Notes under the pieces: generated by a model
The model's input: only the letters and a program-made list of their open reading frames with translations
The model's database searches: none
Told to the model about the DNA's origin: nothing
Position numbers and translations under genes: made by a program
Shown here: piece after piece, positions 8,247-55,487 of the stretch
Position numbering within the stretch: position 1 is the first letter of the stretch
How the letters are laid out: every line of letters begins with the position of its first letter
NCBI GenBank assembly: GCA_029550965.1
Contig: JAKPGJ010000015.1
Span: 2,139-66,138 of the forward strand
Direction: 5' to 3'
Length of the DNA: 64,000 nucleotides
DNA from: Bacillota bacterium
Lineage (GTDB): Bacteria; Bacillota; Clostridia; Oscillospirales; CAG-382

Positions 8247-10419
8247 TTAGGAGTATAGACTCTGTGTTCCGATAATATGTTTTTTAAGCCTTAAATAATC
8301 CAGCGAATCCGGCGTGTCAGAACTGCTGATGCAGGCGGCTCTTAAATATGCGCCCTCAAGTTTATAGGAACCGACCAATGCTTTTTTGAGCAGCAGACAG
8401 TCGTAAGAATCCACGAAGCCATCGCCGTCTATATCGCCGAGCACAACGATTGTGTAGGTATTGGTTCCGTCCGAAGCCGTATCGCCGGTGGAGACAACGG
8501 ACGAATCGTTCAGCGGCTTCCCGTTTGCACCGATAATCGTCATCCCGACCGCTTTCTTAAGAAGCGCTGCGGTTGTGCCTTCTTCAACACCGGTTATCAT
8601 ATCGTTTTCGATTTTAATTTGGCTCTCCGTCAGCGAAACGAAGTTAAAGCCGTACAGCTGCGCATAAATCTCCGCGTACGAACCGGGGACGCCGACTATC
8701 GTATAATGATAGGGTTCCCACATGAAATGCAGCGCGTTCTGAAGCATATACTCGACATTGCCGCGAATTGTAATGGTTTTCAGATTTTCGGATTGAAATG
8801 CTCTGGCTTCTATGGTCTTAACGCCTTTCCCGATCGTGAGCTGGTTCAGCTTGGAGCAGTCTCTAAACGCGTCGCCTTTAATCCGTTCAACGCTGTCGGG
8901 AATATTGACGCTTGTCAGCTTATAACAGTATCTGAACGCTTCGCTTCCGATGGTTACGACGCTGTTTGGAATGTTGATGCGCTCGATATTATTGCTATAT
9001 GCGAAGGTATATCCCGATATGTATTTTACGCCATGCGGAATATCAACCGCGGTCTTGCTGCCTTTATATCGAATAAGAATGCGTCGCCGACGATGATAAA
9101 TTCGCCTGTCTGCGCGCTCATCCAGGGCGTATTCTCAAACGCCAATGTTTCTATCTCTTTAATGCCGTTTGGAATGCTCGGAAAATATGCGTTTGAATCG
9201 GAAAAGGCAGCGATGCCGATATATACAAGGCTTTTCGGCAGCGTCGCGTTTAACAGCTGCGCGCCCTGAAAAGCTGCGTGGCATATATGGGTAACGCCTT
9301 CCGGAATCGAATTGACTGTTTTATACTTGAACACGCCGCCCGCGATGACGCGCACGCCGGACGGGATAACGCTGTTGTTGCAGGCAAGCAGAATGCCGTT
9401 TTCTACAACCGCGCTGTTGTTTTTACGGGCATTCATATACGCCGTTCCAGCAAAAACGTCGACATGCACCTTTACAAGACTGTTCGGCAGAGAAATTCTG
9501 GATAAATCCTTGCATCCGGAAAAAGCAATCGTTGCAATCTCCTCTACCCCTTCGGGCAGCGAGATTTCGGTCAGCGCGCAATTGCAGAAAGCGCCGTATC
9601 CGATATATTTCAGATTTTTGGGAAACTGAACGCTCTTTAGTTTTCTACAGTTGCCGAAAGCCATTTCTTCGATTCTGGTCACGCCGTCCGGAATGACAAT
9701 GCTCTCCAAAGACGTTTCGCAGAAAGCGAAGCTGCCGATATATTTCAGCGTGCTGGGCAGAACTGCTTCTTTGAGGTTAAAGCAGAAGTCAAATGCATAG
9801 GTGTCAACCCTGGTCATGCCTTCGGGCAGCGTAACTTTCTCAATGTTGTTGTTATAATAAAACGCATGCTCCTTTATCGCTTTAACGCCGTTCGGAACTA
9901 CAAAGTGTTTTTCTGTAAGTCCGTTGGGATATGTATCTTTGCTGTAAAGCACACCGTTTTCCGCGGTAAAGTGCTGGTTTTCTTCGCTGACTGTGATCGC
10001 TGTCAAATTCGGACAGTAAAACGCCCTTTCGCCGACATAACGTACGCCTTTTCCCAGCGCAACATTTGTAAGAGAAGAGTTCGAAAACGCGCCGTTCTTA
10101 ATTACTTCAACGCTGTTCGGTACGGTAAGCTGACGGACCGAACTGTTTCCGCTTAAAAAACCGGTTTCAATGATCTTGACAGGTTTGCCGTTAAAAGTAT
10201 CCGGCAAAACCAAATTCTGCTCGTATCCGTTATACTTGACCAAAACGATTTCGCCGTTGTCCTCGGATACTTATAGCTTCCCGCTGTAACGACTTCTTCA
10301 GACGTATACGCTGCGTATTTATCCGCATCAGCAGTTTCCGAAATCGCTAAAACCGAAGGAATCGTAATCAGCACAAAAAGCATGAGGGAGATGACTGTAA
10401 ACACTGTTGTCTTTTTCAT
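8247..10419 (-). pseudogene. Secreted BspA-type leucine-rich-repeat protein with C-terminal dockerin, split by two frameshifts
   Basis: Three consecutive minus-strand frames make up one gene. 10419-10153 carries the signal peptide MKKTTVFTVISLMLFVLITIPSVLA. 10243-9026 carries LRR repeats (...VLPDTFNGKPVKII...). From about 9080 to 8247, hand translation gives LIRYKGSKTAVDIPHGVKYISGYTFAYSNN... running into the listed 166-aa ORF, which ends with the dockerin-like GDIDGDGFVDSYDCLLLKKALVG. The frame junctions are near 10262-10272 and 9065-9085. Confidence 0.7.
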
Positions 10420-11463: not shown

Positions 11464-13998
11464 TTATGCAGTAACGATTTTGCTTGCTTCCTGCAATCCG
11501 AGCTTCTCGATTGCCCATTCTCTCAATTTATACTTCAATATCTTGCTCGCCGCGTTCATCGGGAATTCGGTCATAAACTCGACATAGCGCGGGGTTTTAT
11601 GTTTCGCCATATGCGCGCGGACAAAGTCCTTCAGTTCTTCCTCTGTCATGGTTTCGCCTTCCTTGAGGATGACGCACGCCATGATTTCCTCGCCGTACTC
11701 CCTGTCGGGAACGCCGATGACCTGAACGTCCCTTACCTTCGGATGCGTGTAGATAAAGTCCTCGATTTCCTTCGGATAGATGTTCTCGCCGCCGCGGATA
11801 ATCATATCCTTGATTCGGCCGGTGATTTTAAAGTAGCCGTCCTTGTCCCTGCGCGCGAGGTCGCCGGTGTGCAGCCAGCCGTCCTTGTCGATAACGCTGG
11901 CGGTCGCCTGCGGCATCTTGTAATAGCCCTTCATAATGTTGTAGCCGCGCGCCACGAACTCGCCGTCCACGCCGTCCGGCAAATCCTTTCCGGTTACCGG
12001 GTCAACGATTTTGCATTCGACGCCGAACATCGCTTTTCCAACCGTATTGACGCGGCGCTCGATGCTGTCGTCGATCGTGCTCATCGTGTCGCCGGGAGAC
12101 GACTCGGTCTGACCGTAAACGATGATGATTTCCTTCATGTTCATCTTGTCGATAACATCCTGCATAACCTTGACCGGGCAGGGCGAACCGGCCATAATTC
12201 CGGTTCTGACATGCGAGAAGTCGGTCTTTGCAAAGTCCGGATGTTCAAGCAGCGCGATAAACATGGTCGGCACGCCGTGGAAGGCGGTGATTTTTTCCTT
12301 GCTGATGCACTCGAGCGCAACCTTCGGCTGGAAGTACGGAATCGGGCACATGGTGGTTCCGTGCGTCACCGCGGCGGTCATCGCCAGCACCATGCCGAAG
12401 CAGTGGAACATCGGAACCTGAATCATCAGCCGGTCGGCAGTCGAAAGGTCCATGCCGTCGCCGATGGTCTTACCGTTGTTGATGATATTGTAGTGCGTCA
12501 GCATAACGCCTTTGGGGAAACCGGTGGTTCCGGAGGTGTACTGCATATTGCAGACGTCGTCCTTGCCTAAGGAAGCTGCTCTGCGGTGTACCTCCTCGAT
12601 CGGAACCTTGTCCGCATATTCCTGCGCTTCCTCCCAGGTCAGGCAGCCCGGCAGTCTGCAGTCAACGGTAATAATGTTGCGCAGGAAGGGCAGGCGCTTG
12701 GTATAGAGGGGTTTGCCCGGCTCGGCGGTCTCCAGCTCGGGGCAAAGCTCTTTCATAATCTCGAGGTAGTTGCTGTCCTTATAGCCGTCAATCATAACCA
12801 GCGTATGCGTGTCCGACTGACGGAGCAGATATTCTGCCTCATAAATCTTATATGCAGTGTTCACGGTGACCAGCACCGCGCCGATTTTTACCGTTGCCCA
12901 GAAGGTGATAAACCACTGCGGAACGTTTGTCGCCCAAATCGCGACGTGGTCGCCCCGCTTTACGCCGAGCGCGATGAGGGCTCTCGCGAAGCGGTCAACG
13001 TCTTCCCGGAACTGCGGATAGGTGCGGGTATAGTCGCAGGTGGTGTACTTAAACGCGTACTGGTTCGGGAAAATATCGCATACGATGTCTAAAAGCTGCG
13101 GGAAGGTAACGTCGATCAGTCTATTCTTCTCCCAAATATAATGGCCGTCGCCCCGCAGGCTGGTCTGGAGCTTGCCGGTGCCCTTTCCTTTATCGATGAA
13201 CTGCGACATATAGTGGACAAACTGCGGAAACACGATGCCCGCGTCCTCCAGATCGGGCGCCCAGCGCTTGACCCATTCCAGCGAAATGTAGCCGGAATAG
13301 TCAATCGAACGCAGCGCCATAATCATATCCGGAATGGGAAGGTCGCCCTCTCCCATCAGCCGGTATTTGATCTTTCCGTTTTCAACGACGCTGTCCTTAA
13401 CGTGCACATATCGGATATACCTTCCAAGCGTCTGCACGGTTTTTTCGGGGCTTTCGCCCGCATACCGGTAGGGATGATGAAAATCCCAGAGCGCCGCGAC
13501 ATTGTCGCTCTTAAACCGGTCAAGCAGGTTCTTGAGCCGCTCGGTATTGCTGTAAACGCCGTTGGTTTCGATCAAAAGCGTCACGTTGTTCTTCTCTGCG
13601 TAGGGAATCAGCGCGTTCAGCTGCAGAAATACAGTATTGTCGTCCACTTCTTCGGCGCAGGGTTCCGGGTTCAAGTCCCCCAGCACTCTGACATACCGTA
13701 CGTCCAGCGCGTTCGCCAGCTCGATATACTTTTTCAGTTCGTTTATATTCTCCTCTGCTTTGTCTGCGTACTTCAGGCAGCAGCCGGCAGAAAGGCAGGA
13801 AATCTCCAGCCTGAGCGAGCGCAGCTTCTGCAGGGTCTGCGGAATCTGCTCTTTTGAAAATGGCATTGTCTTTCCGTCAAAAATGTCCAGTCCAAGTCCC
13901 CTTACTTCGATACCGTCAAAACCAAGGTCGGTCGCCATCGAATAAATCTCTGAAAAGCTGTAGTTGTGACACGCAAGGGTTGAAAATGCAATTTTCAT
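11464..13998 (-). CDS. Fusion protein: xylose-isomerase-like TIM barrel (about 275 aa) + AMP-forming acyl-CoA synthetase (about 565 aa)
   Basis: ATG at 13998 lies 7 nt after TAGGAGA; the track's 14004 is an upstream TTG. The N-terminal part resembles the AP-endonuclease-2/sugar-phosphate isomerase fold. The C-terminal part has the adenylate-forming motifs YTSGTTGFPKGV, YGQTE, TGDLARRDKDGYFKITGRIKD and IIRGGENIYP. Confidence 0.85.
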   Translation of the reverse strand: MKIAFSTLACHNYSFSEIYSMATDLGFDGIEVRGLGLDIFDGKTMPFSKEQIPQTLQKLRSLRLEISCLSAGCCLKYADKAEENINELKKYIELANALDVRYVRVLGDLNPEPCAEEVDDNTVFLQLNALIPYAEKNNVTLLIETNGVYSNTERLKNLLDRFKSDNVAALWDFHHPYRYAGESPEKTVQTLGRYIRYVHVKDSVVENGKIKYRLMGEGDLPIPDMIMALRSIDYSGYISLEWVKRWAPDLEDAGIVFPQFVHYMSQFIDKGKGTGKLQTSLRGDGHYIWEKNRLIDVTFPQLLDIVCDIFPNQYAFKYTTCDYTRTYPQFREDVDRFARALIALGVKRGDHVAIWATNVPQWFITFWATVKIGAVLVTVNTAYKIYEAEYLLRQSDTHTLVMIDGYKDSNYLEIMKELCPELETAEPGKPLYTKRLPFLRNIITVDCRLPGCLTWEEAQEYADKVPIEEVHRRAASLGKDDVCNMQYTSGTTGFPKGVMLTHYNIINNGKTIGDGMDLSTADRLMIQVPMFHCFGMVLAMTAAVTHGTTMCPIPYFQPKVALECISKEKITAFHGVPTMFIALLEHPDFAKTDFSHVRTGIMAGSPCPVKVMQDVIDKMNMKEIIIVYGQTESSPGDTMSTIDDSIERRVNTVGKAMFGVECKIVDPVTGKDLPDGVDGEFVARGYNIMKGYYKMPQATASVIDKDGWLHTGDLARRDKDGYFKITGRIKDMIIRGGENIYPKEIEDFIYTHPKVRDVQVIGVPDREYGEEIMACVILKEGETMTEEELKDFVRAHMAKHKTPRYVEFMTEFPMNAASKILKYKLREWAIEKLGLQEASKIVTA

Positions 13999-14069
13999 GA
14001 CCAAATCTCCTAATCATTTATTTTTACTAAAATAACAACGATGAGCCGAAAAACGCGCAAAAAAACAAT

Positions 14070-14360
14070 AAAAAAAGCTCTGTTTTGCCGCAAGCATGGA
14101 CAGAGCCGGTAAGTTTCAAATTATCATTACAATGTCTAACAACATCGTCTCTTGATAACGGCGAGAAACCCGATCACGCCTACTTAAATCCATACAAAGC
14201 GCCTGTATGCGCGAACTTTTATATGAATTTGTTCAACGGACAGCTCCGGGGTGAGCTCACGTCTGCACTGCGTACTGCCTCGCACCATACGGCAGCTCTC
14301 TGAAAACGCATGAACAACAAAAATGTTGTTTACATCCGCTTGTTCCCCATCAATGCTTTT
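14070..14360 (-). promoter_or_regulatory. T-box-like leader RNA (Stem I with CUC specifier) ending in an intrinsic terminator; canonical T-box sequence not recognisable
   Basis: Read on the minus strand, in order. K-turn base: AGC-AUU-GA-UGGGG pairing with CCCCG-GA-GCU. Specifier-loop 3' side GAG-CUC-A (CUC at 14255-14253). AG bulge AGAGA. Stem GCUGCC/GGCAG enclosing distal loop GUAUGGUGCGA. GUUGAAC follows Stem I. CCGUUA F-box-like element. Stem III-like ACGAUGU/ACAUUGU. Terminator GCUCUGU...ACAGAGC + U7 (14070-14106). AAUUUGAAACUUACCGGC occupies the position where AAUNNGGGUGGUACCGCG is expected. Confidence 0.55.
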
Positions 14361-14385
14361 ATTAAACTGTTATTAAGTTAATACG

Positions 14386-14414
14386 ATTATATTAAGCGGT
14401 AATTGGTTTGTCAA
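14386..14414 (-). promoter_or_regulatory. Consensus sigma-A promoter for the T-box-like leader/fusion operon
   Basis: Minus strand reads TTGACA (14414-14409), an exact 17-nt spacer, then TATAAT (14391-14386). Confidence 0.75.
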
Positions 14415-14456
14415 GAGCTTTTTTTATGAAAATATAAAAAATTTTGAGAAAATATA

Positions 14457-14485
14457 TTGTAAAATCAACACCTTTATGTTACAAT
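14457..14485 (+). promoter_or_regulatory. Sigma-A promoter for the Gfo/Idh/MocA oxidoreductase gene
   Basis: TTGTAA, 17 nt, TACAAT, about 38 nt upstream of the ATG at 14524. Confidence 0.65.
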
Positions 14486-14523
14486 CGCCCATAGATATAA
14501 AACAATATCGGAGGTTTTATTCA

Positions 14524-15588
14524 ATGTCTAAGATCAAAGTGGCCATCATAGGCTGCGGTACCATCGCCAACAACGCGCATATTCCGGCTTATATGGCAAA
14601 TCCCGACGCAGAGATTAAGTATTTCTGCGATATAATTCCCGAGAGAGCAAAGGCGGCTGTCGAGAAATACAACTGCGGTATTGCCATCACGGATTACAAG
14701 GAGATTCTTGCTGATCCCGAAGTTGAAGCAGTATCCGTTTGCACGCCGAACAAGATGCACTCCACCATTACCATCGACTGCTTAAAAGCAGGCAAGCACG
14801 TGCTCTGCGAAAAGCCCGCCGCAAGAAATTATACCGAAGCGCTTGCGATGCAGGAAGCGCAGCACAAATACGGCAAAGTGCTCAACATCGGCGTTGTTAA
14901 CCGTTTCAATGCCGCTGTCAACAAACTGCGCGAGATGATTCAGCGCGGCGACCTCGGCGAGGTTTATCACGTTTATGTTTCCTTCAGAGCGCACAGAAGC
15001 ATACCCGGTCTCGGCGGCGCTTTCACAACCAAGGAGATCGCAGGCGGCGGCGTTCTGATCGACTGGGGCGTTCACTATCTGGACATCGTCATGTACTGCT
15101 GCGGCGACCCGAAACCCCTTACCGTTTCCGCAAAAGCGTTCTCGAAGCTCGGCGTAGACATGAAGAACTATGTTTACGAATCCATGTGGGCTGAGAATAC
15201 AAAGGACCTCAACGGCACTTACGATGTCGACGACTTTGTAACCGGATTTGTCCGCACAGAAGGCCCGACCATCACCTTCAACGGCGCTTGGGCTCAGAAC
15301 ATCGGCGTCAGCGAGACCTACATCGACTTCCTCGGCACAAAAGCCGGCGCCCGTCTGAACTACGGCGGCGACTTTACCGTTTACACAACCGCTTGCGGCG
15401 GTCTGGTAAACCTCAAACCCAAATTTACGCCGAACAATCACTTCCAGGCTGAGATCGACAGCTTCCTGAGATGCATCAAGACCGGCGAGAAGCTGCCCGC
15501 TCACATCGATACCGTTATTATTACTGCAAAGATGATGCAGGCTATGTACGATTCGAGCGAGCAGAACCGCGAGATCGCCCTCGACTAA
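14524..15588 (+). CDS. Gfo/Idh/MocA family NAD(P)-dependent oxidoreductase
   Basis: ATG at 14524 lies 8 nt after GGAGG; the track start at 14476 falls inside the promoter. Rossmann motif KVAIIGCGTIANNAH and VLCEKPAA motif. Confidence 0.85.
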   Translation: MSKIKVAIIGCGTIANNAHIPAYMANPDAEIKYFCDIIPERAKAAVEKYNCGIAITDYKEILADPEVEAVSVCTPNKMHSTITIDCLKAGKHVLCEKPAARNYTEALAMQEAQHKYGKVLNIGVVNRFNAAVNKLREMIQRGDLGEVYHVYVSFRAHRSIPGLGGAFTTKEIAGGGVLIDWGVHYLDIVMYCCGDPKPLTVSAKAFSKLGVDMKNYVYESMWAENTKDLNGTYDVDDFVTGFVRTEGPTITFNGAWAQNIGVSETYIDFLGTKAGARLNYGGDFTVYTTACGGLVNLKPKFTPNNHFQAEIDSFLRCIKTGEKLPAHIDTVIITAKMMQAMYDSSEQNREIALD

Positions 15589-16104: not shown

Positions 16105-18342
16105 TTAATATTTTTCCTGACGCAGCTTGATGATAAACAGGGTTGCGCCGCCGGCCGCAGCAAGCGCGATGATAATCAGCGCGACGATCAGGCTCGAGCT
16201 GCCGCTGCTGCTTTCCTCGGAAGACTGCGTTTCCGCCAGTCTGAAGCTGACGGTTACATTCAGGTCTGCCGTTACCTGCTGCAAAACTTTATCGTACGAC
16301 GCTTTGCCCTGCGCGTCCGTATCCTCGGTTGTGCCTACGACCAGCGAGTTGATCACGTATCCTTCGTCGGCCGTGACTCTGAATCTTGCGGCGCCGCCTT
16401 TTTCTACAAACAGTTTATTGGAGGGCAGAACCGAGCCGCCTACGTTTAAGATGATATTGATGGTATGATACTCCGTTAAAACGTCGCACACGACTATATT
16501 GCTGTCGTTCCTGTAATTCAGACTGACCCAGCAGTCGCTCGCAACCGTACGGATATCCAGCGCTTTGTCGCCCAGCTCGTTCTTCGGATTGGAAAGCGTT
16601 TTGTTTGCCGGGTCATAAATCAGATGCTGCACTTCCTGGCTTACGAAGTTGTTTGGAAGCATTATCTCAAGAACGGTTCCTTCGGGGAACTGAACGCTGT
16701 TGTCGTAGGAGTACAGCATAACTTTCGCGTTCGATTTCTTTGCGCTTACGGCAGAAGAAACCTCTGCGTAAAGCGTGTTGTTGGTCTGAAGCGCGACGTT
16801 CGCGGACTCTGCGCTGATGGAAACGCTGGCGCCTTTGGGCAGCACCCATTTGTACGTCTTCGCTTCGAATATAACGGTTTTATCCTTGATGTCGTTGGTT
16901 ATCTTTTTGAAAACGTCGGCGGAAATCAGCGTCTTGGTCTTGATATCAATTACGATGATGTCCGCGTTCCAGTTCACGTCCGACACCTGAACGACGCCGC
17001 CGTTGCCGCCGGGGTTGTCTGTCGGAGCCGCATCCTTAAAGGTAACGGTTATCGTATGCGAAGCGGCTACGTTGCTGAACGTGTACGTATTGTTGGTCAG
17101 CGAAACCACGTTGCCGTCCACCTTCACCGTATCCACTTCTTTGCCGGGATCCGGCGTGATGACGAACGTAATGCTCTGACCTTCCTCGACAGTCGTCTGG
17201 TTTGACGGCGTGATGATTCCGCCGGGGCCTGCGGTCGCCGTAATGGTGTATTGCTTAATGCCGTCCGCGGCTTTAAAGGTAACGACGACCTTTTTGGTAG
17301 CGTCGATCGCCGGAATGGTAAACGAGTTGTCGGTCAGCTCGACCGGCGTTCCGTCAACCGTGACGGTATCTATCACATATCCGAGCGAAGCCGATACCGA
17401 AATCACCACGTCGCTTCCCTCGGGAACCTTGGTTACCGAGGTGCTGCCTACCTCTTTGCCGTTAATCGAAACCGTGCCGCCCTTGCCTGCCTGCACGTTA
17501 ACGGTCACTATCTTTACAAATTCTGCTTTTACGACGGTATCGGTCGTGATTGTAAACGAGTATTTATTGTTTGATACGCTTGAAATCGAAACCGCGGTGT
17601 CGTTCAGCTTCAGCGAGGACAGCATGTATCCGGTGTTGGGGGTCAGCGTCAGCGTGACCGTGCTGCCCGCTGTAAAGAGCTCTCCGTTCGCGGTAACGGT
17701 TCCGCCGGTTGTCGGTTCTATAATTAAATGCTTCTGGTCGGAGATAAATTCCTCAACAACAACGATTTGGAAATTGTTGATTTCGCTTACCGTAAACGTG
17801 TATGTATTGCCGGCGGGAACTTCGCTGCCGTTTAGTATGATTTTTGAAACTTTATAGCCTTCGTCCGGCGTTATTCTCAGCGTAACCGTCGAACCGATAT
17901 AGGCTTTGCCCTCCGTGTCAACGCCATCAAACGTATAAATGTAATGCGCGCCCGGATTGACGACGGTGACCAGCGCCTTCTGCAGCTTTTCCACCGTTAT
18001 GATAATGGAAGTTTTGCTCTCGAGGTCAGAAAGCTCGTAGTTTGTTTTTCCGGCCGCGCCGGGCATCGTGATATTGTTCGCTTTTACCGAGGCAATCCTG
18101 TATCCTTCTTCCGTTTGAATGGTCGCCGTTACCGTTGTTCCTTCCGGGAATTTACAGGTAACAACATCGTTCTCGACACTTTCTTCGCCCGAAACGTTGA
18201 AAGTGACGGTATATCCCTCGCCCCGATTGTAAGTAATTTCAAAAACATTACTCTGACTGTTTTCCGCCATAACGGGAAGAGCGAATATTGAAAACAACAT
18301 CATTATGGCAAGCACAATTGAACAACTTTTCCTGCTAAACAT
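16105..18342 (-). CDS. Repeat-rich cell-surface protein (InlB-B-repeat/Ig-like modules) with signal peptide and C-terminal TM anchor
   Basis: ATG at 18342 after GGAGGAAATA gives the signal peptide MFSRKSCSIVLAIMMLFSIFALPVMA. At least six modules of the form EGY(K/R/V)(I/V)xS(V/I)xxNG... are present. An S-rich linker is followed by the TM segment LIVALIIIALAAAGGATLFII and then KLRQEKY. Confidence 0.8.
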   Translation of the reverse strand: MFSRKSCSIVLAIMMLFSIFALPVMAENSQSNVFEITYNRGEGYTVTFNVSGEESVENDVVTCKFPEGTTVTATIQTEEGYRIASVKANNITMPGAAGKTNYELSDLESKTSIIITVEKLQKALVTVVNPGAHYIYTFDGVDTEGKAYIGSTVTLRITPDEGYKVSKIILNGSEVPAGNTYTFTVSEINNFQIVVVEEFISDQKHLIIEPTTGGTVTANGELFTAGSTVTLTLTPNTGYMLSSLKLNDTAVSISSVSNNKYSFTITTDTVVKAEFVKIVTVNVQAGKGGTVSINGKEVGSTSVTKVPEGSDVVISVSASLGYVIDTVTVDGTPVELTDNSFTIPAIDATKKVVVTFKAADGIKQYTITATAGPGGIITPSNQTTVEEGQSITFVITPDPGKEVDTVKVDGNVVSLTNNTYTFSNVAASHTITVTFKDAAPTDNPGGNGGVVQVSDVNWNADIIVIDIKTKTLISADVFKKITNDIKDKTVIFEAKTYKWVLPKGASVSISAESANVALQTNNTLYAEVSSAVSAKKSNAKVMLYSYDNSVQFPEGTVLEIMLPNNFVSQEVQHLIYDPANKTLSNPKNELGDKALDIRTVASDCWVSLNYRNDSNIVVCDVLTEYHTINIILNVGGSVLPSNKLFVEKGGAARFRVTADEGYVINSLVVGTTEDTDAQGKASYDKVLQQVTADLNVTVSFRLAETQSSEESSSGSSSLIVALIIIALAAAGGATLFIIKLRQEKY

Positions 18343-18500
18343 TATTTCCTCCGTCTGCCGCAGCGCGGCAATATTTTTTAATTGAATCGAGATAAAGGTA
18401 CAAACCATGTCTTGGCGTTTTCATGTCGTACCTTTATATAAGTGTGGTTTTTTTATCGATTTTGCTTCATAAAATATTGTTTTTCACTTTGATTTATGCA

Positions 18501-44166: not shown

Positions 44167-44254
44167 AACACTTGACAAATCAAAATGAGCGCGTATAATA
44201 ATAGCAATAGCGCAAGCTATTCTTTACAATCGGCGTTTTGAAGCGACGCCGTAC

Positions 44255-44340
44255 ATAACAACGGGGTGCTGAGAAATCGGCTGAGATTATACCCATGGAA
44301 CCTGATGCGGGTAATGCCGCCGTAGGAAACATAGTTACAG
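44255..44340 (+). promoter_or_regulatory. TPP (THI-box) riboswitch aptamer
   Basis: GGGGUGCUGAGA...CUGAGA..ACCC...AACCUGAUGCGGGUAAUGCCGCCGUAGGAAAC read directly, upstream of the thiT-like gene. Confidence 0.9.
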
Positions 44341-44362
44341 TTAGTCTATTCGTCTGTCTATG

Positions 44363-55169: not shown

Positions 55170-55400
55170 CAAACAAAGCCCTCGCTTCGGAGGGGAATTG
55201 TACCTTCGCCGATTACTCGCGGCTCTTTGTACGGTTTCGTCCGGGCAAGTCTTCTGACTTAAGCATCAAACACCGGCCGCAGTCTTCCCAGCGTGCGCCA
55301 GTGACATCATTGCGGCCGATTAGCTCTCACAGCGACGAGTTCGTGGGGGACTCTGCCCGGTAAAAAACCGAACATACACCCCGCTTCCTTTTTAAGCCGA
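55170..55400 (-). promoter_or_regulatory. Cobalamin riboswitch with putative terminator
   Basis: Minus strand reads AAAAGGAAGCGGGGUGUAUGUUCGG...CGCUGUGAG...GUCACUGGCGCACGCUGGGAAGACUG...UUAAGUCAGAAGACUUGCCCGG, with the B12 box at 55244-55260. This is followed by the hairpin ccctc-cgaagc-gaggg and a U-rich tract (55160-55195). Confidence 0.8.
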
Positions 55401-55441
55401 GCGTTTTATAAAACAGCCCGGCACCCAGACGCCTAAGTATT

Positions 55442-55487
55442 GAAAAAACCAACCGTTTTGCGGCGGTCTGCCGCAAACCGGCTGGTT
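55442..55487 (-). terminator. Intrinsic terminator after the kinase-like gene
   Basis: Minus strand ccggtttgcggc-aga-ccgccgcaaaacgg(ttgg) followed by tttttt. Confidence 0.8.

Follow-up and report, generated by a model that had tools for sequence, protein, structure and literature searches.

T-box leaders make two contacts with tRNA, that of the specifier with the anticodon and that of the UGGN bulge with the NCCA end, and the second of these 'controls regulatory logic' (TBDB; PMC7778990). What is then to be expected of a leader in which the first contact can be recognized and the second cannot? Such a leader lies on the minus strand of the DNA analysed here, a 64,000-nucleotide (nt) stretch from a Bacillota bacterium (contig JAKPGJ010000015.1; 'the window'), upstream of a gene for a TIM-barrel/acyl-CoA ligase fusion protein. 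An earlier note, made from the letters of the window, had described a T-box-like leader with a CUC (Leu) specifier and without the canonical T-box sequence, and had offered three readings: a divergent T-box not alignable by eye, a decayed T-box, or a Stem I-type tRNA-docking leader with a different read-out. The comparisons described below show the leader to be a lineage-specific derivative of a Leu (CUC) T-box, with its decoding half intact and its sensing half lost. As far as sequence can decide, charge sensing via UGGN:NCCA pairing is excluded. That the leader is still a tRNA-dependent switch, now with a new platform, is the reading we tentatively prefer, giving it a little less than even weight. 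The leader is best called a T-box derivative.

All the elements listed in the earlier note were located on the minus strand when positions 13900-14600 were read, and promoter, K-turn, CUC specifier, AG bulge, distal stem, F-box, Stem III-like hairpin and terminator were each found in place (Table 1). The gathering score of the Rfam T-box model RF00230 is 93 bits. At this threshold no T-box was reported in the whole window, since the leader scores 52.3 bits. This score was obtained with permissive filters on positions 13950-14500, where 14362-14116 were aligned with E = 1.2e-10 in a small local search. The alignment covered Stem I, Stem II, IIA/F-box and Stem III, and reduced the 28-position antiterminator core to 4 nt. 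The search proposed in the earlier note thus returned a hit from Stem I to Stem III that was subthreshold and skipped the discriminator. No Rfam family besides T-box matched the leader region. No UGG occurs between the Stem III hairpin and the terminator end in the window leader, and the claim that the canonical T-box sequence is absent holds. The CUC triplet occupies the specifier position of the model, with predicted pairing to tRNA-Leu(GAG), and the AG bulge and distal loop would form the platform for the tRNA elbow. Among the features that define the family, the leader has Stem I with its K-turn, specifier, elbow platform, Stem III, terminator and common descent; it lacks the UGGN bulge, the antiterminator helices A1 and A2 and a score at the gathering level. 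Stem II, IIA/B and F-box elements are present and aligned by RF00230, but the G and the UUA of the F-box are taken by a helix, Px, described below.

The ancestry of the leader was traced through the orthologues of its gene. Relatives of the fusion protein are encoded in 589 reference-genome stretches, and the counts given here are for the best 80 of these (L001-L080; 66-75% identity, full length). The labels L001-L101 denote the fetched loci of relatives, and WIN the window leader. Nine of the 17 loci scanned first gave RF00230 matches above threshold (96-124 bits), with a CUC-A specifier, the antiterminator AGAG-UGGUACC-GCGGAAG...CUUUCGUCUCU and a terminator. Iterating nhmmer with a profile of Stem I located this stem upstream of 39 of the 80 orthologues, and in 38 of the 39 it was followed by UGGNACC 88-155 nt further on; a Leu T-box precedes about half of the best 80, and the others are without. 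Nearly all have CUC as specifier; L052 has CUG and L095 has UUC. Local folding was applied to the stretch that starts immediately ahead of UGGNACC and runs through the terminator-shared strand. All 13 canonical leaders tested formed A1 of 4-5 base pairs (bp), a bulge of 7 nt and A2 of 8 bp, with energies of -9.3 to -12.1 kcal/mol. Since the orthologues with leaders of 96-124 bits share the gene, its position, the specifier and the Stem I sequence family, the window leader is shown to be, by all these signs, a T-box by descent, and Leu to be its right specificity. The earlier note, which had neither these orthologous T-boxes nor the Px helix, was right in identifying a T-box-type leader with a Leu CUC specifier.

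Two of the canonical leaders differ in their specifier. The L052 leader (upstream of 3001) has the Leu specifier CUG, not CUC (CCCGCUGGCCCCGGAGC). L095, the closest canonical orthologue (77% identity), carries at 1098-1420 a complete T-box for the fusion gene at 1501 with the specifier UUC (Phe), GUGAAUUCACCC as compared with GUGAACUCACCC of L003 and L004. From the sequences, a single nucleotide change appears to have switched the amino-acid specificity at the same gene.

The clade without the sensor was sampled by fetching the closest protein clusters and by one metagenome scan for the 3' signature. The scan for the 3' module gave 65 matches, three of them real and all three duplicates of L084 or L094. 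Nine distinct leaders from relatives of at least 79% protein identity, and also the distant L012 (71%), are without UGGN. The defect extends to every relative of at least 79% and is seen in the alignment with those at 90, 89 and 81% identity. The eight relatives that keep Stem I scored 46-82 bits with RF00230, the discriminator block being deleted. In the 3' plan of the clade, Stem III is followed by AAUAA + UGAUAAU, a variable linker of 12-25 nt (usually ACC and a U-run), CGGCUCUGUNUAUGCUUA opening a long hairpin, and U6-7. Each variant leader has a 7-bp Px, no foldable antiterminator and a stand-alone terminator. The next-nearest relatives are either canonical (L095, and L001 and L002 at 75%) or, as in L097 (76%), without T-box. 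Within the window no further copies of the 3' module were found; the motif occurs once.

Comparison of canonical and variant leaders shows the UGGN tetranucleotide and antiterminator helix A2 to have been deleted in the variant lineage. A path for this loss is suggested by L095 and L101, compared by eye. The canonical form CAAUAAGAG-UGGUACC-GCGG[AAG..loop..CUUUCGU]CUCU would have passed into the variant form CAAUAA + UGAUAAU...AGA-ACC-U(n)-CGG-CUCU by deletion of UGGU and helix A2, the remnant CGG + CUCU becoming the terminator base. On this path the UACCG of the window, which aligns with UUCCGG of L100, would not be the UACCG of a T-box. The earlier note had taken it as retained. It is probably a coincidence, as the segment aligns with UUCCGG or UUUUCGG of relatives and L084 has no ACC there.

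Two loci show further loss. L093 (1270-1470), a member of the clade, has Stem I and Stem II deleted; the promoter, the first 21 nt of the leader, CCGUUAUCA, UGAUAAU, ACC with the U-run and the terminator are kept, and the gene is intact. RF00230 gave no match to the L093 leader. L097 (1200-1500), syntenic for GFO/IDH/MocA, fusion, aroQ and dut genes, has an unrelated 5' untranslated region (UTR) of about 230 nt with no T-box match; GCGGGCUCACCC near the start of this 5' UTR is a possible vestige.

Is there an antiterminator of another kind in the variants? The RNA that begins at UGAUAAU and ends with the terminator loop has folding energies of -1.3 to -6.3 kcal/mol (-3.8 in WIN) and no consistent structure, and no linker-to-terminator pairs were found in WIN, L081 and L082. 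The prediction of antiterminator alternatives, which the earlier note had called for, gave no A1/bulge/A2 fold in the window leader. A weak mini-hairpin, AGAACC/GGCUCU (-1.5 to -4.2 kcal/mol), is present in five of ten leaders and missing from WIN, L081 and L082; it is read as a vestige of helix A1 and the bulge ACC. UGAUAAU or the linker was also considered as a mimic of the terminator 3' strand, a search that yielded this mini-hairpin alone, in the same five of ten. Pairing of the tRNA 3' end with the terminator CGGC was rejected, as two G-C pairs at most could form with NCCA. Full-length minimum free energy (MFE) folds of the pre-terminator transcripts were noisy and inconsistent and were not used as evidence.

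The decoding domain has behaved differently from the sensor. Stem I has 73 invariant columns across eight clade members, and two pairs of its distal helix switch (CG/UA and UA/CG) on both sides together. The specifier is CUC followed by A or G throughout the clade. Spacers outside the conserved leader elements are unalignable across it. Identity at four-fold sites of the fusion gene, between the window and relatives of about 80%, is 0.27-0.38; the random expectation from composition is 0.31, and the neutral sites are thus saturated. Invariant columns and compensatory pairs, despite saturated synonymous sites, show the docking domain to be still under purifying selection. If the 3' architecture has a single origin, selection has maintained the decoding domain ever since the loss of the bulge. 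Nor is this a recent break, because the variant architecture is common to lineages at synonymous saturation. The comparison of orthologous leaders suggested in the earlier note thus found the Stem I elements conserved, with distal-helix pairs changing on both sides. 'Decayed T-box' is right for the discriminator, which is lost, and wrong for the decoding domain. The extra Stem I hairpin of the window is an insertion that varies from lineage to lineage: in L081 and L082 it is longer, L101 has a different one, and L084, L094, L099 and L100 have none. The third reading, a docking leader of Stem I type that is read out in another way, agrees best with the signs of selection but is unproven.

The terminator is real. 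It folds at -12 to -13.9 kcal/mol in WIN, where a simple terminator scan misses it since its apical part exceeds the loop limit of the scan. Nine clade terminator hairpins fold at -12.5 to -22.4 kcal/mol, are followed by U6-7 and include three doubly compensated positions. The apex in WIN is 8 nt shorter than that in L081 (-13.9 vs -22.4 kcal/mol). The two strands are conserved unequally: column identity is 0.91 on the 5' strand (11/19 invariant) as against 0.63 on the 3' strand (2/20 invariant), and the drifting 3' strand often leaves a C·A mismatch near the terminator base. An ordinary terminator should drift on both strands, which argues for a second constraint on the 5' strand.

A candidate source of this constraint is the 3' base of Stem I. 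Pairing of CGGAGCUG from Stem I with CGGCUCUG at the terminator 5' base was calculated for eight variants. The energies were -9.2 to -12.8 kcal/mol, which 0.3-5.7% of shuffled sequences attained; for WIN the energy was -12.8 kcal/mol and the fraction of shuffles 1%. For 27 canonical orthologues the corresponding energy was -6.7 kcal/mol, that of their shuffles -6.2, and the median fraction of shuffles 0.45. Such pairing would explain the frozen strand, because the Stem I base is fixed by T-box constraints. The 5' leader sequence AAGCAU, at 14358-14353 in the window, is complementary to AUGCUU, at 14097-14092 on the same terminator strand (-4.7 to -6.2 kcal/mol; broken in L099), and the two pairings would be nested. 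WIN keeps AUGCUU though its partner on the terminator 3' strand is deleted.

The second novelty of the clade is Px. In MFE folds of the 3' module, GUUAUCA pairs with UGAUAAU over 7 bp, with Stem III inside, in 9/9 clade leaders. The 5' strand is ancestral, being the same in some canonical orthologues (e.g. L011, CGUUAUCAAAGAGA), and the 3' strand is the novelty. In L012 an equivalent closing helix has a different 3' strand (CCGUU:GACGG + CA:UG). The hairpin enclosed by Px is flanked by the purine string AAGAG before and AAUAA after, like Stem III of canonical orthologues. These often have an additional hairpin, X, ahead of Stem III. The idea that the enclosed hairpin is X was dropped, the flanks in L095, L002 and L052 favouring Stem III, and favouring X as a probable optional insertion. 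The IIA/B pseudoknot, on which tRNA binding depends, is built in part from F-box nucleotides (PMC7583486). Read by eye, the GAGA segment of the window leader could pair with the IIA loop (IIB). Since both use F-box nucleotides, Px and the IIA/B pseudoknot should be at least partly exclusive. A Met-Ile-Ile leader peptide read from AUGAUAAU was rejected by eye: it has no Shine-Dalgarno (SD) sequence, frames and lengths are unconserved, and the motif is accounted for by Px.

These features can be combined into a scheme. tRNA-Leu(GAG) would still dock on the decoding domain. Its 3' end could not be read by base pairing, and aminoacylation would go unsensed in the canonical way. Transcription from the consensus promoter would terminate by default, and read-through would be set by competition for the frozen terminator 5' strand. 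The best-supported competitor would be the 3' base of Stem I (CGGAGCUG vs CGGCUCUG, 8 bp), and AAGCAU in the 5' leader, pairing with AUGCUU, may assist. Px and the IIA/B pseudoknot would be a second, coupled pair of alternative structures. The leader would respond, in one direction or the other, to tRNA that occupies and rigidifies the decoding domain, and would be indifferent to its charge. In its full form, with charge sensing swapped for a platform in which the terminator 5' strand is contested between its own 3' strand and both Stem I base strands, Px/pseudoknot acts as second toggle and tRNA-Leu occupancy sets termination, the scheme is rather unlikely. The polarity of such an occupancy switch might be opposite to that of every T-box described.

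A number of observations weigh against the tRNA-dependent switch. tRNA binding should stabilise the K-turn and Stem I base and so favour termination, which is the opposite of the canonical response and blind to charge. The gene is intact in L093, where Stem I and II are lost, and in L097, where the whole leader is lost; tRNA docking is thus not required for the gene to persist. L093 also retains the frozen strand without Stem I. The complementarity between the Stem I base and the terminator was noticed first and tested post hoc. When all of the upstream RNA was scanned without bias for partners of the terminator 5' strand, none stood above shuffles and no location was consistent. The scan is of low power: true T-box antiterminators also fail it by energy (mean z 0.03), with location working in 9/14, and local folding was adopted after this failure of the positive control. 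Read by eye, the terminator 5' strand could pair almost as well with the AG-bulge segment AGAGCYG. Both Px strands are invariant in the clade, which leaves no covariation, and between L012 and the clade the closing helix has only one-sided pairing-compatible changes. The WIN/L081/L082 subclade is the most degenerate, without the mini-antiterminator, and WIN has the 8-nt deletion in the terminator apex. No tRNA-Leu gene was found in the window or the fetched loci.

Several of these points would suit a constitutive attenuator, the rival that survives best and one that we consider somewhat unlikely. Here the antiterminator would have been lost unreplaced and the terminator would hold the output of a very strong promoter at a constant low value. 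The docking domain would be kept for some other reason: it might stabilise the RNA, guide its co-transcriptional folding, or let the terminated leader of about 300 nt act in trans as a tRNA-binding RNA. The promoter is indeed a perfect consensus, no antiterminator can be folded, the unbiased scan found no consistent upstream partner, and L093 and L097 keep their gene intact without Stem I; the terminator of WIN, weakened by its deletion relative to L081, is as expected for tuned leakiness. The attenuator leaves unexplained why, with synonymous sites saturated, the docking elements (specifier, K-turn, AG bulge, distal loop, F-box) have been held constant and show compensatory changes, why the terminator 5' strand is frozen as its 3' strand drifts, and why complementarity to Stem I is specific to the variants.

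Antitermination by another factor is improbable. A protein or trans molecule would bind Px, the linker or CGGCUCUG, and the decoding domain would be a tRNA input or a passenger. It would account for UGAUAAU, ACC with the U-run and CGGCUCUGU being conserved in sequence even in L093, where Stem I and II are missing, and for a terminator 5' strand conserved in sequence beyond its pairing ability. But the nearby genes (GFO/IDH/MocA oxidoreductase, aroQ, dut) include no candidate RNA-binding regulator, the motif is found once in the 64-kb window, and no non-T-box Rfam family matches the region.

A neutral relic, that is a recently broken and decaying T-box functionless in all its parts, is largely refuted by the sequence comparisons and appears very improbable. 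L081 and L082 are close to the window (four-fold identity 0.57-0.62), so features confined to them weigh little, and loss of the leader has occurred, in part in L093 and wholly in L097. Against this, the variant architecture reaches lineages whose four-fold identity (0.27-0.38) is that expected at random (0.31), and Stem I, Px and the terminator 5' strand are nearly invariant there, with compensatory pairs, next to flanking spacers that cannot be aligned. A hidden canonical T-box, whose UGGN bulge and antiterminator have diverged or shifted too far to be recognised, is refuted at the sequence level and has a negligible likelihood: the rest of the T-box is canonical and UACC stands just ahead of the terminator, but there is no UGG from Stem III to the terminator end, the covariance model deletes the block in all nine variant leaders (and the divergent T-box 'not alignable by eye' falls with it), local folding yields no A1/bulge/A2, the terminator directly follows the linker with no room for a shared-strand hairpin, and L084 is without even ACC.

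The nearest comparison for such a leader is with the orthologous Leu(CUC) T-boxes, beside which stand the CUC T-boxes of Bacillus subtilis ilv-leu and leuS. With the orthologous T-boxes the window leader shares a promoter-proximal Stem I, CUC followed by a purine, AG bulge, distal loop, Stem II, IIA/F-box, Stem III, a U-tract terminator and the same gene and position. In contrast to them it is without the UGGNACC bulge, A2 and the strand-sharing antiterminator; an extra helix, Px, joins the F-box tail to the 3' side of Stem III, and it is the Stem I base to which the terminator 5' strand is complementary instead. Staphylococcal glyS T-boxes carry a lineage-specific 'stem Sa' insertion in the antiterminator/terminator domain (PMC9177973, PMC4574755). 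They and the window leader are both clade-conserved remodellings of the discriminator or expression platform in an otherwise standard T-box; the glyS leaders are reported to keep the bulge and the pairing of the tRNA 3' end, whereas the window leader is without the bulge. Translational (class II) T-boxes of Actinobacteria, e.g. ileS, resemble the window leader in having one half strongly altered and the other kept, but they combine a short Stem I with a UGGN discriminator and an SD sequestrator/antisequestrator, where the window has a full-length Stem I and a lost discriminator (PMC7583486). Its output also differs from theirs, being a hairpin with U7 about 60 nt upstream of the SD sequence; with UGGN absent as well, the leader does not belong to that class. 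In glyQ/glyQS-type T-boxes a whole domain (Stem II and IIA/B) is missing and the leader is functional; the window leader has Stem II and IIA/B and is without the bulge (PMC7583486). No T-box with a decoding domain and without the bulge was found described in the literature, where an earlier description in broad T-box surveys is possible.

The UGGN:NCCA contact is the source of the T-box name and, in current models, of the regulatory logic. The variant clade has been without it long enough for synonymous sites to saturate, and its decoding domain is still preserved. Either the decoding domain alone drives a switch via a new platform, or a docking RNA is kept for a purpose beyond charge sensing. 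There is also a practical blind spot. The TBDB set was built from the Rfam model (PMC7778990), and collections of this type would miss such leaders because their scores are below the Rfam threshold.

Table 1. Features of the leader and the genes behind it (positions in the window; minus-strand elements written from high to low where read 5' to 3').
Feature	Position	Strand	Remarks
Sigma-70 promoter	14386..14414	-	TTGACA 14414-14409, 17-nt spacer, TATAAT 14391-14386; 12/12 consensus matches
T-box Stem I	14242..14357	-	RF00230 alignment
Stem I K-turn base	within 14242..14357	-	AGC-AUUGA-UGGGG with CCCCG-GA-GCU; aligned by covariance model; invariant in 8 clade members
Inserted hairpin AACAACA-UUUU-UGUUGUU, 5' strand of Stem I	14313..14330	-	lineage-specific
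AG bulge AGAGA	14301-14297	-	RF00230-aligned, invariant in clade
Distal stem GCUGCC / GGCAG	14296-14291 with 14279-14275	-	RF00230 alignment; double compensatory pairs
Distal loop GUAUGGUGCGA	14290-14280	-	UGGUG motif aligned and invariant
Specifier CUC (Leu)	14255-14253	-	context GAG-CUC-A, purine A at 14252; at RF00230 specifier position
3' base of Stem I CGGAGCUG	14241..14248	-	K-turn GGA + basal GCU; candidate alternative partner of 14108-14101
Stem II region, AGUA box, Stem IIA hairpin, F-box, GAGA segment	14149..14241	-	RF00230 alignment; strong clade conservation
F-box CCGUUA	14161-14156	-	RF00230 alignment
Px 5' strand GUUAUCA	14153..14159	-	last G of IIA + F-box tail + pseudoknot linker
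Stem III-type hairpin ACGAUGU-UGUUAG-ACAUUGU	14129..14148	-	RF00230-aligned as Stem III; enclosed by Px
Px 3' strand UGAUAAU	14120..14126	-	invariant in 9/9 clade leaders including L093
Single-stranded linker UUGAAACUUACCG	14107..14119	-	in the place of AGAG-UGGUACC-GCGG of canonical relatives
Frozen terminator 5' base CGGCUCUG	14101..14108	-	complementary (8 bp) to 14248-14241
Intrinsic terminator	14070..14106	-	GCUCUGU 14106-14100 with ACAGAGC 14083-14077, degenerate apex, U7 14076-14070
SD AGGAG of fusion gene	14011-14007	-	sequence reading
Fusion gene, 844 amino acids	11464..13998	-	regulated gene; xylose-isomerase-like TIM barrel (residues 22-246) + AMP-forming acyl-CoA ligase (310-819)
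aroQ	11438-11001	-	downstream of fusion gene
dUTPase-like gene	11013-10549	-	downstream of aroQ; open reading frames overlap by 13 nt

The -35 and -10 hexamers of the promoter are conserved in the alignment with relatives. A second UUUUUCGGCUCAU lies at 14042-14048 (minus strand), 28 nt past the terminator U-tract; it resembles the junction of U-run and CGGCUC at the terminator base (compare UUUUACGGCUCAU of L094) and may be a remnant of a local duplication.

The ligase half of the fusion protein is PRK12583-like and matches generic fatty-acid, feruloyl and malonyl-CoA ligases. A search of the PDB for relatives of the enzyme returned only generic ANL ligases and remote TIM-barrel matches, and nothing was found in the literature on the gene family. 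At canonical loci no conserved operon partners were found that could give a clue to the substrate; the gene stands alone there. Because of the 38 canonical Leu T-boxes, the link of the enzyme to leucine is strong, and isovalerate, proposed in the earlier note, is a reasonable candidate substrate. The conserved Leu T-box marks a widespread, uncharacterised TIM-barrel/acyl-CoA ligase fusion as an enzyme of leucine metabolism. The fusion was found in Thermoclostridium, Anaerobacterium and Acetivibrio thermocellus among many Clostridia, with no characterised close relative.

In the variant clade alone, aroQ and the dUTPase-like gene may be co-transcribed with the fusion gene; their synteny is conserved through the clade and absent at canonical loci. 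In L094 (4138-5070) and L099 (4096-5028) the two are called as one product of 310 amino acids (PF01220 + PF00692), which is either a gene fusion or a frameshift artefact. A divergent GFO/IDH/MocA oxidoreductase gene lies upstream of the leader. Surface proteins with dockerin, BspA-type leucine-rich repeats and InlB B-repeats are encoded nearby (window 8247-10243 and 16105-18408; L086:7615-8115). Such neighbours suggest a cellulosome-type, fibre-associated organism of the Clostridia, known only from metagenome assemblies. It is carried by the assemblies ERZ773286, ERZ795101 and ERZ651803, and GCA_030154545.1 is a genome of the variant clade. Protein P0001, 100% identical, is indexed in 49 blocks of the searched collection.

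Elsewhere in the window two riboswitches exceed the Rfam gathering scores, a cobalamin riboswitch at 55227-55443 (minus strand; 89.1 bits) and a TPP riboswitch at 44252-44348 (plus strand; 64 bits). In L084 a tRNA-Ser(GGA) gene, unrelated to the Leu leader, lies at 1250-1341, between the GFO/IDH/MocA gene and the next gene upstream.

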